From Phycisphaerae bacterium (GTDB lineage: Bacteria > Planctomycetota > Phycisphaerae > UBA1845): 61,771 bases of DNA. A model generated the notes under the pieces. The model was not told the origin of the DNA and ran no database searches. It saw only the letters and a program-made list of their open reading frames with translations. Shown here piece by piece: positions 1,519 to 60,666 of this stretch. Each line of letters begins with the position of its first letter. Within the stretch, counting starts at the first letter, position 1. A program made the position numbers and the translations under genes. Where the stretch lies: the NCBI GenBank assembly GCA_016929015.1, contig JAFGJQ010000043.1:1-61771 (forward strand), given 5' to 3'.

Positions 1519-3261
1519 TCAGGGGGCAACCAGGTTCAGGTCGCTGATGTCCTCGCCCCCCCGTTCGCCGGTTGTGCTGAATCGCGTAATCTTCCTGCCG
1601 GAATCCACAACAAAGAGGAAGTACAGCTCGTAATCCCCCTTGAGGCTCCAGTCCTTGATCCGCTGGAAACCTCGGACGCCGCCCAGCGACCCGATGACCT
1701 CGGGGAAGTACTGCACTTCCATCACCCGCCGGCCCCCGACGTCGGCCACGGCAATCTGTCCGCAGATCTTGTACTGCGCGCCGGATTCGTCCGTGACGAG
1801 GTAGTTCTTCACCGTCTTGACCGCAAAGCTCTTGGCCTGCCCGAGCAGGCTGCCCGCCCGCAGGTTCACCACGTCCACCTGGAGAAGCGCCTTGCCCTCG
1901 GGCACCTTCAGCCGGTGCAGGGGCTCGCCCGCCCCGGACGTCTCCAACGTGCTGATGACGTGTCCGCTGATCAGCTCACCGTCGCGCATCTCGGCGTCGG
2001 CAACCGACGTGAAGTAGACGCCCGCGTGCGGCAGCGCGTTGCCGAAAGACGCCCCCGTCACGTCCGCGCCGTGCGTCCGGCCGCGCGTCTCCGGACCGGG
2101 CCGACCGGCGCCGTCCCGTTCGGACGGCAGCGGCGGTGTTTCCTCCGCCACGGCGGGGGGCAGGGCGTCTGACGTCACCTTCACCGCCGCCCGCGCGCCC
2201 ATCTTGTACTCCAGAAACACCGGCTCGAACGCATGGCCCTTTGAAACCGGTCCCACCTCGGGCAACTCAAACACTACGGAAATCGAGCCGTCGGCGGCCG
2301 GCGTATACAGCTCACTGGCTGCCCACTTCGTCTTCCCTCGCTCGTCTCGCCTGACGAGAAACCGCTGGTGCTTCTTCGTATCGAACACCGCGATCGGATG
2401 GAACTGCTCCATCACCCCGAACCGACCCCGCCCGACCAGCCGGATCTGATACAACGCAAAACGGTGCTTGCCATCCTCGTCCTGGGCGTCGCTGGTCGGC
2501 TTGAACGTGACCGCCCAAAGCTCCCTGCCGCCTTCCTTCCCGTATGTCGGATCCGGCTCCGCCTTCTCGTTGACCGTGTTTCCCATCTCATTCACACCGG
2601 TCGTAATCCGATAGACGTAGTTCTCCCGAACCATCGAAACGAACTGGATCGCGTCCCGCGGCGCCAGGCACCGGACATCGCGCGGGGCGGTCTGGTTCCA
2701 GCCGATTTCGGTCACGTAATCCGGGTGCTCCAGCCGCCACTCCCGCTCGCCGCTGAACACGCCGCTCGAAAAAAGCGAGGCCAGCCTCACCGCAAAACGG
2801 TCCGGCGAAAACAGCAAACCGTTCGGCTCCGCCTTCGGGTCGAATTTCTCGTCCTTGACCTTGATCTGCCGGAAGCCCAGAAACGGCTCGCCGAACGGCA
2901 GCATCTGCAGGGCCACACCCACCACGCCCATGATGCACAAGGCGGTCACCAGCCCGAAGGCCACCCCACCCACGCGGTCCACGATGCTCGGCAGCAGGCA
3001 GCTCCGCCGCAGCAGGGCATCCAGCGTCAGGCGCAGCGTCACCAGAGGCACCACAAAGCAGATCGCCAGCGACAAGGGAAGGGCAAAATCCGGCTTCCAC
3101 TGGATCAGCCACTCCAGGGCCACGTATTCGTGCAATGCGAAGGCAAACACCAGGCTCAGCACGGTGATGACGCACATGATCATCGCGCTGAACAGGCCGT
3201 GGATGGACTGGTAAAAGGCAACGGCCCCGATCAGCGCAATGAGAAACAGCGAAACCGCCAT
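1519..3261 (-). CDS. 580-aa membrane protein: CvpA-like 4-TM N-terminus plus a large soluble domain of unknown function
   Basis: The N-terminal ~125 aa form four hydrophobic helices (MAVSLFLIALIGAVAFYQSIHGLFSAMIMCVITVLSLVFAF...VGGVAFGLVTALCIMGVVGVAL). The layout resembles colicin-V-production (CvpA) family proteins. I recognise no motif in the remainder. It starts 16 nt downstream of the GspE-like gene. Confidence 0.6.
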   Translation of the reverse strand: MAVSLFLIALIGAVAFYQSIHGLFSAMIMCVITVLSLVFAFALHEYVALEWLIQWKPDFALPLSLAICFVVPLVTLRLTLDALLRRSCLLPSIVDRVGGVAFGLVTALCIMGVVGVALQMLPFGEPFLGFRQIKVKDEKFDPKAEPNGLLFSPDRFAVRLASLFSSGVFSGEREWRLEHPDYVTEIGWNQTAPRDVRCLAPRDAIQFVSMVRENYVYRITTGVNEMGNTVNEKAEPDPTYGKEGGRELWAVTFKPTSDAQDEDGKHRFALYQIRLVGRGRFGVMEQFHPIAVFDTKKHQRFLVRRDERGKTKWAASELYTPAADGSISVVFELPEVGPVSKGHAFEPVFLEYKMGARAAVKVTSDALPPAVAEETPPLPSERDGAGRPGPETRGRTHGADVTGASFGNALPHAGVYFTSVADAEMRDGELISGHVISTLETSGAGEPLHRLKVPEGKALLQVDVVNLRAGSLLGQAKSFAVKTVKNYLVTDESGAQYKICGQIAVADVGGRRVMEVQYFPEVIGSLGGVRGFQRIKDWSLKGDYELYFLFVVDSGRKITRFSTTGERGGEDISDLNLVAP

Positions 3262-3277
3262 ACGCTCGCTCCTGATT

Positions 3278-4963
3278 CTACTTGCCCGGCTCGTCCCGCA
3301 AGCCGCGCAGAATCTCGTCCATGCTCGTGACCCCCTCGATCACCTTCAGCAACCCCTCTTCCATCAGGTAGTGCATCCGGGCCTTGCGCGACTGCGCCTT
3401 GATCAGTTTCAACGGCGCGTTGTCGGCGATCATCGCCCGGATGTTCTCGTCAATCTTCAACACCTCGAACAGGCCCGTTCGACCCACATAGCCGCTGCCC
3501 TGGCACGTCTGGCAAATGATCTCCCGGCCCTTCTTGTCGTAGACCGGTTCCGTGGGCGGCGAGTAAAACGTCTCGATCTTGTCCACCGGAAGGTTGAGCT
3601 TCTTGAGCTTGGCCGGGTCCGGCCGATAGCCCACCCGACACGCCGGGCACAGCTTCCGGACCAGACGCTGGCTCACGGACCCCACCATGACCTGGGCCAC
3701 CAGTTTGCTGTCCTCCACCATCGCCATGAGCCGGGCCAGGGCCTCGATGGCGCTACGGGCCTCCATGCCCACATAGAGCTTCTTCTCATCCGCCGCATTC
3801 GCCGCGATCTGGGCGCTGTCACGGTCCGCGCATTCCCCCACCATCACGATGTCCGGCTCGCGGCGGAGGACGGTCTGCAACATGCGGGCGTAACTCACGC
3901 CCTCGTCCCCCTCCCCCTTGTACGTATGCTGCGTGATGTTGTCGATGTCCAGCAGGGGCCGGCGCTCCAGCGTGTAGATGTTCTGCATGAAGGCGTCGTG
4001 CTCCCGCAGCACCGCGTACTGCGTCGTCGTCACCCCGGATTCCGGCGGCCCGCTGAACAGCACGATCCCGTGCGGCTCCCGAATGAGTTCCTTCACGATT
4101 TCTTCACGCGGCCCGGCCAGCCCCAGGTCCGCCAGCCGACGCAGCTCCGCGCTGGTCTGCACCCGCAGCCGCAGCCGCTCACCCTGCGTCGATCCCGACG
4201 TCTGAATCTCGATGAACCCCAGGTCCACGTCGCCCAGCAGGCCGGCCTTCACACGGCCCTTCTGCGGACGACGCCGCTCCTCCGGATTCAGACCGCCCAG
4301 GCGCTTGAGATACCGCAAAAGCCGCTCGCCGTGGTCGGGCGGACCCGACTGCTGGGGCTGCTCGGCCACCACCCCGTCGATCTTGTAGAAGACCCGCGTC
4401 CGCTCCGGTGTGACCAGAACGTCCGCAAGGCTCGATCGACGCCACAACACGTCAAACACGAAGTCCTGCACCGCGTCGAACATCTGACGCTCCTGCAGGT
4501 CCTCCGGCTGATGAACCGCCTTGCCCTCGAAATTGGCCAGGTGGATCCGCAGCCCCTTGTCTGATTGGGCCGCCTGTTTGTCTCCCTTGGCCCGAGCCAT
4601 GACCCCCTTGATGTGATTCCAGGTCAGGACCCGCGCGTCCGGAACCACCCGACCGTTCCGATGGAAGACGTACGCCAGGGCGGATGCCCCCGCCAGAACG
4701 ACCCAGAATGACAGGCCGATGAAGTAGCTTGCGCCGGACCAGGGCGGCAACAGGCACACCAGCAATCCGGCGATGCCTCCGGCCAACACGATCAGGTTCC
4801 ACTGCTCGCGCTTGGTCTTCACCACGTCCGTGTCACGGTCCACCCACTGGCACAGGTAGCACCACAACACGAACAGCACGAGCACGGCGGCGATTTTGAC
4901 GTAATTGAAGTATCCGGGGTGGACCGACGAAAATTGGGCCAGCAAAGCCATGCTGTTTTGCAT
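3278..4963 (-). CDS. GspE/PilB-family secretion-ATPase homologue, membrane-anchored, with degenerate catalytic motifs
   Basis: The fold markers are retained: tetracysteine CPAC...CQTCQGSGYVGRTGLFEVL and the Walker B region LRREPDIVMVGECAD. Walker A reads GPPESGVTTT (no Lys, 4028-4051). The Asp box reads TLERRPLLDI and the His box KKLYVGMEARSA. The N-terminal ~100 aa carry 3 predicted TM helices. Confidence 0.85.
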   Translation of the reverse strand: MQNSMALLAQFSSVHPGYFNYVKIAAVLVLFVLWCYLCQWVDRDTDVVKTKREQWNLIVLAGGIAGLLVCLLPPWSGASYFIGLSFWVVLAGASALAYVFHRNGRVVPDARVLTWNHIKGVMARAKGDKQAAQSDKGLRIHLANFEGKAVHQPEDLQERQMFDAVQDFVFDVLWRRSSLADVLVTPERTRVFYKIDGVVAEQPQQSGPPDHGERLLRYLKRLGGLNPEERRRPQKGRVKAGLLGDVDLGFIEIQTSGSTQGERLRLRVQTSAELRRLADLGLAGPREEIVKELIREPHGIVLFSGPPESGVTTTQYAVLREHDAFMQNIYTLERRPLLDIDNITQHTYKGEGDEGVSYARMLQTVLRREPDIVMVGECADRDSAQIAANAADEKKLYVGMEARSAIEALARLMAMVEDSKLVAQVMVGSVSQRLVRKLCPACRVGYRPDPAKLKKLNLPVDKIETFYSPPTEPVYDKKGREIICQTCQGSGYVGRTGLFEVLKIDENIRAMIADNAPLKLIKAQSRKARMHYLMEEGLLKVIEGVTSMDEILRGLRDEPGK

Positions 4964-56532: not shown

Positions 56533-57039
56533 CCGGCCTTCCATTCCGCCGGCAACGAGCGTCAGCCCGACGAGTACCGCCTGGCGGCCGGCCGGCCGGT
56601 GTTTCCCGGCCGAACCGACGCGAGCGCCGATCTGCAGCGGCGTCACCATGGTTTGCCTGCACTTCGCCGCAAGTGTTCCCGACAGGCCCGCCGTGCCTGG
56701 CGCGGGACGCGCGTTCACGCGGCGTCCTCACCATTGCGTGGGAGGCGAGGCGGTCCTACAATGGGTACGCACGGCTCGGCAGCGGAGCCGGGTCAGGTTA
56801 TCCGGCAAACCCCATGAACGGGACCGTTCCATGGGCGACGGGACGAACAGCCAGGGGTCGACGCTTCTCCCTCCGATTCAGGCTCCTCGTCTGGGCAGCC
56901 ACACAAGACCACATGTGATGATTGTTCCGACTCCGCCCGACAACGCGCGCGGAACGGCGGACCGGGCAGTGCCGGCCGGTCTGAAGCGTCGAAACCCATC
57001 TGCGCGGTGAGGTTTTCGCCACAAACCAGGAGGTGCAGC

Positions 57040-58011
57040 GTGAGCAGCGAGGGCATGACAAGGTGGACGTGGCTGGGGCTCGCACTTGGGGTCTTCACGG
57101 GCCTGACGAGCGCAGACGAACCGCCGCCGATCAACCGACTCGAGGGCGTGGTGGTGTCTCAGGAAGACGGACAACCCGTGGCGGGCGTGCCGGTGGGCGT
57201 CGCAAGCCGGAAGAGGGGCTATCTGATCTTCAACGATGAAGGGCTGAGAACGCACGGAGAACAGGATCTGGTTTTCGGCATGTTTCCCAAGCGAAACGGG
57301 CGGCACTCCTGCCAGACCGTGACGGATGCCGCCGGCCGCTTCGTGCTGGAGAACTTCGCCGCACCCGATGACACCTGGATGATCGCGGCCGGCGATGCAC
57401 AGCACGGTCATGCGATCGAGGCGAGCTTCAAGCCGGAAGACTTCAGGTCAAAACCGCTGCGGCTGGAGCTGCAGAGGCCCGGGCACATTCTGCTCAGCCC
57501 GCCCAAAACGCCCAAAGGAGTGCGGCTCTTCACGAGTATCGGACTGGTCGATTCTGATGCACGGCAGGATGCCGATGCTGCCGTAACGGGAGACGCGGAA
57601 CCCCTGAGCGAGCGGATACGCTACTACGCGTCGATGGAGCTGGGCGAAGGCACCACCAGGCCTCAGCGGATCGGGCCGCTGCCGGGAGGGCATCGGTACA
57701 AGGTGAGCGTGCAGGGATATGGCAACAACCTGCCCTACGCGGCGCTACTGTTCGAGCGTGTGATCACGGTGGAGCCGAACGGAACGGCCGAGGCGGCATT
57801 CGAGTCGGACGGCGGTCTGATCGTCAGTGGCCGGGTCACCGGCAGCGACGACAAGCCGCTGGACAAGGTCAACGTGAAAGTGAAGACCGCCGACGGGACT
57901 CTGATCGGCGGCGTGAGTGACGCGGAAGGAAAGTACGAACTGCACGGCGTGCCGCCGGGGACGCACACGCTGGAGCTTCTTCGACACGCCAAACGCACGG
58001 CGCCTGGCTGA
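57040..58011 (+). CDS. signal peptide plus carboxypeptidase-regulatory-like beta-sandwich repeats; ends at an in-frame TGA inside the last sandwich
   Basis: AGGAGG at 57028-33, then GTG at 57040. Signal: MTRWTWLGLALGVFTGLTSA. Sandwich motifs: LEGVVVSQEDGQPVAGVPVGV...DAAGRFVLENF and VSGRVTGSDDKPLDKVNVKVKTADGTLIGGVSDAEGKYELHGVPPGTHTLEL. Confidence 0.7.
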   Translation: MSSEGMTRWTWLGLALGVFTGLTSADEPPPINRLEGVVVSQEDGQPVAGVPVGVASRKRGYLIFNDEGLRTHGEQDLVFGMFPKRNGRHSCQTVTDAAGRFVLENFAAPDDTWMIAAGDAQHGHAIEASFKPEDFRSKPLRLELQRPGHILLSPPKTPKGVRLFTSIGLVDSDARQDADAAVTGDAEPLSERIRYYASMELGEGTTRPQRIGPLPGGHRYKVSVQGYGNNLPYAALLFERVITVEPNGTAEAAFESDGGLIVSGRVTGSDDKPLDKVNVKVKTADGTLIGGVSDAEGKYELHGVPPGTHTLELLRHAKRTAPG

Positions 58012-58077
58012 GGTTCCGGGCCCAAAGACATCTCCTGGTCGCAGGAGATCGCTCTGCCGGTCGGGCAGAGTACGGTT

Positions 58078-60666
58078 GTGCGAGACATTGCGAAAGTGAA
58101 GGTGCAGTCGGTCCAGGCCGGCACGCCGGCGCCGGACTTTGAGGCGACGACCCTCGACGGCAAGCCGTTCAAGCTCTCGGACCTGCGTGGCAAGGTCGTG
58201 CTGGTGGATTTCTGGGCGACCTGGTGCGTCCCGTGCGTGGCCGAGCTGCCGCGAGTGAAGGCGCTGTACGAGAAATTCGGCGGCGATCATTTCGCGGTGG
58301 TCGGCATCAGCTTCGATTCGGACGCAGCCACGGCACGAAAGTTCACAAGCGCGCAGCAGTTGCCCTGGACGCAGATCTGGGCGGAAAAGGGGGACGAGGG
58401 GCCGATCGCCGGCCTGTACGGCGTGGGCGGGATTCCGGCCACTTTCCTCGTCGGGGCGGACGGCAAAGTGATCGAGCGTGATCTGCGCGGCGACGAACTG
58501 ACGAAGGCCGTCGCACGCGAGACCCGCAAACTGGCCGGCGGCGGCACACCGCCGGACACCTCGCCGATGGGTGATCTGGTGCGGCGCGTGCTGAGAGTGG
58601 ACACGGCCTTGCAGCCGCGGGAGACGCCGGCGGCACTGCCGGCGGAATCACCCGAAGCGCGGGCAGTGCTGAATGCCACCGTCGCCAGATACCGCGAGAT
58701 GAAAAGCTACCGCGACACGTACGGCTGGACGGCACGGCTCGAGCAGAAGAGTGAAGCACCAATGGAGGGGCGAATCGATGGGTCGCTCGCCTGGACATCG
58801 GGTCGCATCGTGAACAAGTCGGACGTGGCGCACGTCTATTGCGACGGCCGGAAGGTCACGTGGTACTGGCCGGCCGCAAACCAATACGTGCAGGAGATCC
58901 AGGACGACGACTTGTCCGGGGCGCTGCACGAGCCGGAGTGGTTTCACTACGGCCAGCGGGCCGCCGGCATGCATCCGCTGGCGGTTCTGCTGGTGGCCGG
59001 CGATAACGCGACGGAATCGCTGCCGATTGTCGTCGTGACAGACGTGCAGCCGACGACGCGCGGAGGCCAATCCGGCCGGTTACTTCACGGACGGTTCCGC
59101 GTAGACGGGCTGCCGCACGCCGCCGCGTTGCCATTCGAAGCGTTCATTGACGATCAACGGGGGCTTTTTGAGGAATTCCGGCTGAACTACACGGACTCGT
59201 ATCGGGCGGCGCTGCGGGAATCCTACGAGGGCGACCCGGACGCCGTGGAACGCGCGGAGATCGTGATCACACTGCGTGACATCGAGTGCGACAAGCCGAT
59301 CGAGGATGCGGCCTTCGTGCTGAACGAACCCGGCGCGCGGAAGATCGACATGTTCAGCGTAATGAGCAACGTCCGCACGGTCCGCCCGAGGCAACTGCTC
59401 GGGCAGGACGCACCCGCTTTGACCGGCACGACTCTGGACGGGTCGCCGTTCGACCTGGCCGCGGAGCGAGGAAAGACGGTGGTAGTGGCGTTCTGGGGCA
59501 CTTGGGCACCGCAGGCGGAACAGATGCTGCGCGAACTCCAGCGCCTGGCCGCGGAAGACACGCCTAACGTGCGCATCGTCGGCGTCGGCCGGAACGACGC
59601 GGTCGGCGGGCCGGCCATGCGCGGGATGATCGAGCGCTGCGGCGTGAAGTTCCCACAGGTAAACGATGGCGACGGCAAACTGGCCGAAGCGTGGAACGTG
59701 GCGTGCCTGCCGCTGATTTACGTCGTGGGCCCCGCCGGCCGCGTGAACCGGGTGCTCCAGAGTTGGACGGACGACGCCCGACAGGAGCTGTCCGATTGTC
59801 TGCCCGGGCTTGCCGGCGGTCCGACCACCCGGCCGGTCGACGCACCGGCCGATCCGTCGGAGCCCGATGAAACGGTCGGATTCACGCTGAAGGTGGACGG
59901 CAAGCCGGTGGGCGATGCCCGCGTGAAGGCCGAGACGCTGGAAAACGCCAATGTCTCCCGCTGGAACATGTCCGAGCAGGACATCGACGGCGACGGGGAA
60001 GCCGAGCTGATCTTCCCCGACTGGCAGGGCAGCCTGTCGATTCTGAAGCCGAGCACGGGCGCACTGCAGCGCATCCAGTTGATGGGAATGGAGGCAACAT
60101 CGATGAATAGCGTGCGCGGCGTGCGCATCGACGGCCAAACGTGCTGGCTGTGCTCGGGAACGCGCTACCGCGTTGTCAACGTGGACTCCCGAGAGGGAGA
60201 AGAGGCGGTGGCCCTGCACTCGCCACGCGGCGAACTGCTCTGGACCTTCCGGCCGCAGGTCGACAAAGGCCTCCATGCACAATCACAGGCCGCGGCCGGC
60301 GACCTTGACGGAGACGGGCGTGTTGAGTTCGTGATCGGAATAACGACGCAAGAAAGGAAGCAGATCGACGAAAACTCCTACGAGATTACCAACATGGCAG
60401 GACGATTGGTCTGGCTCGACCAGACCGGGCAGCGCATTGCCGAGCGGGAAACCGAAGGCAGTATTGAACTGCTCCACGTGACGAACGCCGGGCCGGGCAA
60501 GCCCGCCACGCTCCTGTGCATCAGCAACGGCATGCTGGAACGCTACAGCCTGGCGCCGCCGCCCGGCGGCGACCCGCAGGAGAACGTAGCAGGAATGTCG
60601 CCGGCCGGCCCGTCGGCGTGCATGCCGGCACCCCAGAACACCACGGCCGGCGACAGCGGGGATTGA
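58078..60666 (+). CDS. TlpA-like thioredoxin (CxxC) + LolA-like region + second thioredoxin-like domain lacking CxxC + FG-GAP/VCBS repeats; no signal peptide of its own
   Basis: APDFEATTLDGKPFKLSDLRGKVVLVDFWATWCVPCVAELP. Second domain: GKTVVVAFWGTWAPQAEQ. FG-GAP-like: DIDGDGEAELIF, GDLDGDGRVEFVIG. It is in the same frame as 57040..58011, and the GTG start is only nominal. Confidence 0.75.
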   Translation: MRDIAKVKVQSVQAGTPAPDFEATTLDGKPFKLSDLRGKVVLVDFWATWCVPCVAELPRVKALYEKFGGDHFAVVGISFDSDAATARKFTSAQQLPWTQIWAEKGDEGPIAGLYGVGGIPATFLVGADGKVIERDLRGDELTKAVARETRKLAGGGTPPDTSPMGDLVRRVLRVDTALQPRETPAALPAESPEARAVLNATVARYREMKSYRDTYGWTARLEQKSEAPMEGRIDGSLAWTSGRIVNKSDVAHVYCDGRKVTWYWPAANQYVQEIQDDDLSGALHEPEWFHYGQRAAGMHPLAVLLVAGDNATESLPIVVVTDVQPTTRGGQSGRLLHGRFRVDGLPHAAALPFEAFIDDQRGLFEEFRLNYTDSYRAALRESYEGDPDAVERAEIVITLRDIECDKPIEDAAFVLNEPGARKIDMFSVMSNVRTVRPRQLLGQDAPALTGTTLDGSPFDLAAERGKTVVVAFWGTWAPQAEQMLRELQRLAAEDTPNVRIVGVGRNDAVGGPAMRGMIERCGVKFPQVNDGDGKLAEAWNVACLPLIYVVGPAGRVNRVLQSWTDDARQELSDCLPGLAGGPTTRPVDAPADPSEPDETVGFTLKVDGKPVGDARVKAETLENANVSRWNMSEQDIDGDGEAELIFPDWQGSLSILKPSTGALQRIQLMGMEATSMNSVRGVRIDGQTCWLCSGTRYRVVNVDSREGEEAVALHSPRGELLWTFRPQVDKGLHAQSQAAAGDLDGDGRVEFVIGITTQERKQIDENSYEITNMAGRLVWLDQTGQRIAERETEGSIELLHVTNAGPGKPATLLCISNGMLERYSLAPPPGGDPQENVAGMSPAGPSACMPAPQNTTAGDSGD

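Follow-up and report, generated by a model that had tools for sequence, protein, structure and literature searches.

An in-frame TGA that very probably encodes selenocysteine in an exported TlpA-type protein of Phycisphaerae

Does the TGA at positions 58009-58011 end a gene, or is it read as an amino acid? The question arises in a stretch of 61,771 nucleotides from a Phycisphaerae bacterium (referred to as the window), in which the open reading frames 57040-58011 and 58078-60666 share one frame and, as direct reading of the sequence confirmed, have this codon in frame between them. Gene callers and public annotation divide such loci into two products, a "carboxypeptidase-regulatory" protein of 323 aa and a "TlpA" protein of 820-860 aa. 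An earlier, sequence-only reading of the window had weighed selenocysteine (Sec), programmed read-through, a recent nonsense mutation and a sequencing error, and had leaned towards the first. All the tests that we ran favour Sec. Judging from sequence comparisons, we consider it very probable that the TGA encodes selenocysteine and that the two frames make up a single exported redox protein of 1,208 residues.

Layout and predicted domains of the probably recoded gene

The features of the locus are collected in Table 1. Across the TGA, the translation runs ...LLRHAKRTAPG-U-GSGPKDISWSQEIALPVGQSTVVRDIAKV..., which agrees with the peptide ...GTHTLELLRHAKRTAPG*GSGPKDISWSQEIALPVGQSTVVRDIAKV quoted in the sequence-only reading, and the motif around the putative Sec is R-x-x-P-G-U-G-x-G-P. 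The GTG at 57040, which stands behind a Shine-Dalgarno sequence, is the likely start, and the coding sequence ends at a genuine TGA stop (60664-60666). Public homologues carry hydrophobic N-termini equivalent to the predicted signal peptide, and an alignment of eight full-length orthologues is collinear across the internal TGA.

Table 1. Coordinates of the features in and around the probably recoded gene
Feature	Position	Strand	Basis
Shine-Dalgarno sequence AGGAGG, 6 nt before the GTG start	57028..57033	+	sequence read directly
Single recoded CDS, 1,208 residues, putative Sec as residue 324	57040..60666	+	translation with TGA=U
Predicted Sec-type signal peptide, MSSEGMTRWTWLGLALGVFTGLTSA followed by DEPP	57040..57114	+	read from the translation
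CarboxypepD_reg-like beta-sandwich with the putative Sec loop	57817..58098	+	PF13620; AlphaFold2
Putative UGA selenocysteine codon, residue 324	58009..58011	+	TGA in 14/14 loci; Cys in distant homologues
Candidate SECIS hairpin 1, 8 bp, loop GUCG, -11.6 kcal/mol	58030..58049	+	folding, covariation, codon conservation
Second conserved hairpin, 7-8 bp, loop GGUCG	58052..58070	+	81% of cells paired
TlpA/ResA-like thioredoxin-fold domain, intact WCVPC (58222-58236)	58141..58533	+	PF00578, PF08534
LolA-like alpha/beta domain	58651..59319	+	full-length AlphaFold model; approximate boundaries
Second thioredoxin-like domain without cysteines, WAPQ 59503-59514	59422..59814	+	AhpC/Redoxin stretch; secondary structure of the model
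All-beta FG-GAP-type region, invariant CWLC (60142-60153)	59881..60552	+	weak PF01839 and PF13517 matches; all-beta model

The upstream frame encodes the signal peptide and a CarboxypepD_reg domain, the downstream frame two redoxin domains and weak FG-GAP matches. The upstream domain is assigned to the CarboxypepD_reg family of seven-stranded sandwiches by a PF13620 score of 56 bits, above the gathering cut-off of 32.3. The Pfam match stops just before the TGA, and the last long strand of the sandwich (KDISWSQEIALP) is encoded after it. In an AlphaFold2 model of the sandwich-plus-TlpA segment, made with 12 sequences (pLDDT 87, pTM 0.77), strand 57-66 is joined to strand 79-89 by a loop that holds residue 74, which corresponds to the putative Sec. 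The modelled sandwich is thus closed by the strand that follows the TGA, in line with the earlier proposal that read-through completes the last strand of this domain.

The adjoining domain matches PF00578 and PF08534 with an E value of 1e-40. Foldseek aligned it to ResA and to 4nmu with TM scores of 0.83-0.90, and CcmG and TlpA structures were matched as well. These matches place it in the TlpA/ResA/CcmG group (cd02966), which is characterized by a thioredoxin fold with a beta-hairpin at its N-terminus and with a CxxC where helix 1 begins. The two positions of the CxxC are Cys in 12 of the 12 aligned sequences, and the putative Sec lies 72 residues upstream of it.

A model of the full-length protein (AlphaFold, pLDDT 76) arranges the chain as three beta-sandwich regions, the TlpA domain, a disordered linker, a LolA-like domain, a Cys-less thioredoxin-like domain (WAPQ) and the all-beta FG-GAP region. 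The modelled LolA-like domain resembles 4mxt, 4ki3, 8cgm and 2w7q (Foldseek, TM 0.58-0.71), which suggests that it might bind a hydrophobic ligand or a lipoprotein. In the second thioredoxin-like domain, positions 59494-59514 read WGTWAPQ instead of WxxWCxxC. Both cysteines of the CWLC motif in the FG-GAP region are invariant in the eight orthologues, and the motif may provide a second site for redox chemistry or metal binding.

Conservation of the TGA and of the hairpins behind it

When the fused sequence was used as a query, the close relatives that were returned were downstream halves only, of 816-862 aa. Seven contigs of such relatives were fetched, and in all seven a CarboxypepD_reg gene of about 320 aa lies upstream in the same frame and ends at a TGA, a few dozen bases from the downstream half. 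A search with the N-terminal reading frame yielded 22 further public clusters (305-340 aa, 38-56% identity), and 20 of the 20 sequences checked among them end at ...LLRHAxRxxPG or a close equivalent. In addition, 301 genomes of the class were searched in all six frames, which detected copies with the TGA at 40-48% identity in five other genomes as well as two tandem copies on another contig of the same genome (C475). The TGA is kept in eight orthologues, whose full-length identity to the window protein is 41-59%, and also in six paralogous copies (G148, G078, two in G197, G085 and the two on C475). None of the 14 loci that were read as DNA has TAA or TAG as the in-frame stop; each has TGA.

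The sequence behind the stop is conserved as well. The 20-30 codons that follow the TGA are strongly conserved as protein, and the peptide GPGPKD[IV]SWSQE.. is among the best conserved stretches of the whole product. The sequence-only reading had held that the downstream frame has no convincing start of its own, and among the loci compared we indeed found no conserved in-frame start after the TGA. The orthologues that were checked therefore do not look like two independent genes: the in-frame TGA, coding sequence across it and a hairpin are all kept. It is this comparative conservation of the TGA that, for practical purposes, excludes a sequencing error, a nonsense mutation of recent origin and an independent gene pair.

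Which amino acid is inserted at the TGA is indicated by more distant homologues. About ten of them (P0057, P0068, P0077, P0061, L027, L028, L031, L034, L036 and one on contig C501 of the same genome) carry a Cys at the exact position of U, while many others have no Cys there. This Cys sits in a C-G-x-G loop, 18 residues after the P/A of PGT[YH], the same spacing as that of U in U-G-x-G. Aligning orthologues at this position had been suggested earlier, and the residue found in these homologues was Cys, not Trp or Arg. All of these Cys homologues are distant, at 30-40% identity, and no close orthologue with Cys was found in the data examined; as far as the sequences go, the clade with the motif R-x-x-P-G-U-G-P-G-P appears to be Sec-only within these data. 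The distant homologues are single fused proteins, among them BlaR1/M56-sandwich-TlpA proteins and others of the same class.

The short-form paralogues on C475, outside the window, were looked at individually. They lie in tandem at 1777-3420 and 3554-4709 and comprise a signal peptide, sandwiches, U and TlpA (547 aa), the second copy running off the end of the contig. Their in-frame TGAs are at 2866 and 4631, and each copy has the hairpin GUCUCCC-UGGAGC-GGGAGAU. Counting the window gene and these two copies, the genome has at least three genes of the putative Sec family.

The recoding signal expected in bacteria is a hairpin shortly downstream of the UGA. Folding reproduced both hairpins of the sequence-only reading, namely AUCUCCUG-GUCG-CAGGAGAU at 58030-58049, 18 nt after the TGA, and CUCUGCC-GGUCG-GGCAGAG at 58052-58070. 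One number had to be corrected: the loop of hairpin 1 (58038-58041) is 29-32 nt from the U of the UGA and not 27-30 nt. The published bacterial SECIS model calls for a loop of 3-9 nt, a stem of 4-16 bp, dG <= -7.5, a G in the first two loop positions and a spacing of 16-37 nt (PMC13188914). The earlier view that hairpin 1 conforms to bacterial SECIS criteria stands, as its loop is GUCG, its stem has 8 bp, its energy is -11.6 kcal/mol and 26 nt separate the A of the UGA from the loop. In a manual check against the same model, 13 of the 14 loci fit, and every clade has a hairpin that begins 18 nt behind the TGA. The paralogue L026 has a hairpin of 10 bp that is shifted by one base, and its loop, CAACAA, is without the consensus G.

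In a single sequence, such a structure means little. A hairpin of at least 8 bp with loose SECIS geometry follows 3.8% of random genome positions and likewise 3.8% of all TGA trinucleotides; hairpins of this geometry are not rare in this GC-rich genome. The fold of the 78-nt region has a z-score of -1.58, which is not significant. Given this z-score and background, the significance of the hairpin has to come from comparative data. Across the 14 loci, 91% of the cells of the hairpin 1 helix are paired, and three pairs show compensatory exchanges (CG>UA, UA>CG and GC>UA), which also lead to amino-acid substitutions (W>L, Q>R). None of 500 shuffles reached the observed covariation, and pairing dropped to 36-54% when the register was slid. 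In addition, codon identity in invariant amino-acid columns of the eight orthologues is 0.73 for codons +1 to +20 compared with 0.54 elsewhere, and the seven most codon-conserved of the 115 windows of 20 codons all overlap the hairpin 1 region. The strongest synonymous-site conservation of the gene is thus found at hairpin 1. No Rfam family matched within 57950-58150 at E <= 10; we know of no bacterial SECIS family in that database.

Hairpin 2 shows covariation, too, with 5 of its 7 pairs changing on both sides, and its position is kept in 12 of the 14 loci (it is absent in L023 and L024). At 47 nt from the UGA, its loop exceeds the usual SECIS spacing. This hairpin may aid SelB, cause the ribosome to pause or simply follow from the LPVGQ codons, and either of the two conserved hairpins might be the element that binds SelB. 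Positions 58003-58020 could form a small stem whose loop contains the UGA itself. This stem is CCUGG/CCGGG in the window and CCGGGG/CCCCGG in several orthologues, and it may simply be a by-product of the G-U-G-P-G codons.

Selenocysteine machinery and rival explanations

Searching the genome for the Sec machinery had been named as a check of the proposal, and selA, selB, selC and selD are all present. The tRNA-Sec scores 69 bits and is called SeC with anticodon TCA by ARAGORN. The SelB and SelA genes are adjacent on contig C432. There are two SelD genes. One (C94:10470-11402) belongs to a NifS-like (Aminotran_5)-SelD fusion of 740 aa that is not interrupted by a stop. The other (C318:17117-18037) stands alone and is itself a selenoprotein gene, with the in-frame TGA at the classical place (SCAG-U-AGKLP) and the hairpin GCUUCC-CGU-GGAAGC behind it.

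SelA is found in six of the six genomes with the TGA form and is absent in five of the five other genomes with the Cys form. This co-occurrence fits Sec, although phylogeny confounds it: SelA is present almost throughout the order (43 of the 45 sampled genomes). In eight genomes (G183, G233, G227, G169, G275, G141, G134 and G215), which belong to one family of the order, SelA matches Pfam in two pieces (1-183 and 192-366) within one open frame, which suggests a clade-specific insertion in SelA.

A reassignment of TGA in the whole genome was rejected. TGA ends 63% of the long reading frames, as the ordinary major stop, and it is also the terminator of the gene itself; the genetic code is thus standard. 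A local bypass of the stop would be a different matter. A near-cognate tRNA for Trp, Cys or Arg might suppress the TGA, or the ribosome might terminate and re-initiate, with the hairpins serving as a generic read-through or pausing signal. Stimulatory structures downstream of the stop are indeed known for stop-codon read-through, hairpin 2 is conserved even though it lies outside the SECIS spacing, and the L026 loop does not have the consensus G. Such a mechanism would not, however, account for a stop that is always TGA at the 14 loci, for a homologous residue that is Cys and not Trp or Arg, or for the dedicated Sec machinery in all carriers, and re-initiation would in addition call for a restart codon, of which none is conserved. 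We regard general read-through or re-initiation as very improbable.

The public annotations all call two genes, with names such as "TlpA disulfide reductase family protein" (P0004, P0007) and "carboxypeptidase-like regulatory domain-containing protein" (P0283), and the locus could accordingly be read as a secreted 323-aa beta-sandwich protein that truly ends at the TGA and, behind it, a TlpA/FG-GAP protein with a translation start of its own. This is highly improbable in view of the single frame that is kept at every locus, the strong conservation as protein of the 20-30 codons that lie behind the stop and ahead of any possible start, and start codons that are inconsistent or absent. The downstream product, of an extracytoplasmic TlpA type, would be left without a signal peptide, the upstream sandwich would miss its last strand in the AlphaFold model, and the distant homologues are fused. 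As to a pseudogene, a recent nonsense mutation or an assembly or sequencing error at 58009-58011, the window does come from a fragmented assembly of 530 contigs. Yet at least 14 loci, taken from independent assemblies, share the identical feature, another 20 public fragments terminate at this very place, and the sequences have diverged to about 40% identity with purifying selection on both sides of the TGA. The comparative data effectively refute this reading, and we give it a negligible chance. Insertion of selenocysteine thus remains the explanation that we strongly prefer.

Relation to known selenoproteins and a possible role of the proposed selenocysteine

New bacterial selenoprotein families are reported regularly. 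A 2026 compendium lists 119 prokaryotic selenoprotein (sub)families, several of them Sec-containing thioredoxin-fold families such as the UGC-containing TlpA proteins (NF041054, WAxxUGC) and the UxxC Prx-like proteins, which have the Sec in the active site (PMC13188914). The former are those that the GOS study termed "Prx-like (UGC-containing)" and that NCBIfam lists as "ResA-like WAxxUGC motif-containing protein" (PMC2398784, PMC13188914). The window protein is similar to NF041054 in being an exported thioredoxin-fold protein of the TlpA/ResA type with one putative Sec and a downstream hairpin. In NF041054, however, Sec replaces the first active-site Cys, whereas here a normal WCxPC is retained and the putative Sec is in a loop of the beta-sandwich. 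Membership in this family was rejected on the basis of a score of 72 bits (cut-off 300 bits), which reflects the generic thioredoxin domain only, and of the active site WATWCVPC.

With the UxxC Prx-like thiol:disulfide oxidoreductase/thiol-disulfide isomerase-like proteins (PF00578/cd02966), the window protein has in common the combination of an extracytoplasmic redoxin with beta-sandwich modules and the splitting at the TGA by gene callers. In the UxxC families Sec is part of the active site, whereas here it would lie outside the thioredoxin fold, in the G-U-G-x-G-P loop. Membership was rejected for this group, too, the CxxC being invariant and the putative Sec lying far upstream of it. Related in architecture are the multidomain BlaR1/M56-CarboxypepD_reg-TlpA proteins of Planctomycetota and Verrucomicrobiota (for example P0057, P0068 and P0077), which contain the same module of a last sandwich plus TlpA, with C-G-x-G in the loop that is U-G-x-G here. 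These proteins differ in having Cys rather than Sec, other N-terminal domains (membrane sensors) and no TGA.

Neither PF13620 nor the G-U-G-x-G motif occurs in any of the 119 families of the 2026 list (PMC13188914), and no matching family was found in that list or among the NCBIfam selenoprotein models. Two broader searches were less specific. A profile of the sandwich plus linker, run against 1.8 billion representatives, was overwhelmed by giant proteins that contain CarboxypepD_reg repeats by the dozen and told nothing on the Sec column, and a search of genome contigs with a two-domain alignment returned generic TlpA genes from many phyla, in which the patterns were TlpA motifs only. In the six-frame search of the class, TlpA-only matches in five other genomes (G169:C5, G157:C13, G193:C38, G239:C39 and G134:C2) have one in-frame TGA in the part that encodes the thioredoxin domain; they probably belong to the known UxxC-type Sec-TlpA families.

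The recoding itself resembles that of Escherichia coli fdhF, with its SelA, SelB, SelC, SelD and SECIS in the coding region: in both cases a stem-loop whose loop begins with G/U lies a short, fixed distance behind the UGA, and all four sel genes are present here as well. The hairpin sequence is unrelated to that of fdhF, it is a candidate SECIS here, and a second conserved hairpin follows it. The mechanism thus appears to be ordinary, whereas the protein family and the position of the Sec appear to be new. To our knowledge, Sec is located within a UxxC, CxxU or TxxU motif in almost all redox selenoproteins. An exported multidomain protein of Planctomycetota that has its Sec outside such a redox motif, beside an intact CxxC, would be unusual.

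If the TGA is decoded as proposed, SelD would make selenophosphate, SelA would convert Ser-tRNA(Sec) to Sec-tRNA(Sec), and SelB would carry the latter to the ribosome by binding the mRNA hairpin 58030-58049. Translation would yield one pre-protein of 1,208 residues, exported via its predicted signal peptide and consisting of beta-sandwiches, the Sec-bearing CarboxypepD_reg sandwich, TlpA with its CxxC, the LolA-like domain, the Cys-less thioredoxin-like domain and FG-GAP, in this order. Sec324 would be part of the exposed G-U-G-x-G-P loop of the sandwich next to the TlpA domain, where it could form a third redox centre and undergo selenenylsulfide exchange with Cys396/Cys399 or with the substrate. 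The CxxC would in turn be recharged by the CcdA/DsbD-type membrane reductase of the genome, in which a DsbD_TM-type reductase homologue is present. That Sec acts as a redox partner of the CxxC is a tentative proposal, which we derive from the fact that U324 and C396/C399 are the only invariant redox residues common to the window protein and the short paralogues. We put forward with more reserve, and as rather unlikely, the further-reaching idea of a new type of extracytoplasmic selenoenzyme, in which the Sec of the sandwich loop and the CxxC of the adjoining TlpA domain would form a U + CxxC relay. Such a relay may be, for example, a built-in selenoperoxidase or a (poly)sulfide/disulfide reductase, and the Phycisphaerae clade would be obligately Sec-dependent, as no Cys orthologue was found.

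For the annotation of this class, the finding would correct a systematic error, since at least 30 public gene pairs of Phycisphaerae appear to be single selenoprotein genes. The three paralogous clades, with hairpins that are divergent but structurally equivalent, provide comparative data for SECIS models of Planctomycetota. The combination of an intact CxxC with a Sec on the neighbouring domain may amount to a natural test of what selenium does beyond the replacement of an active-site Cys.
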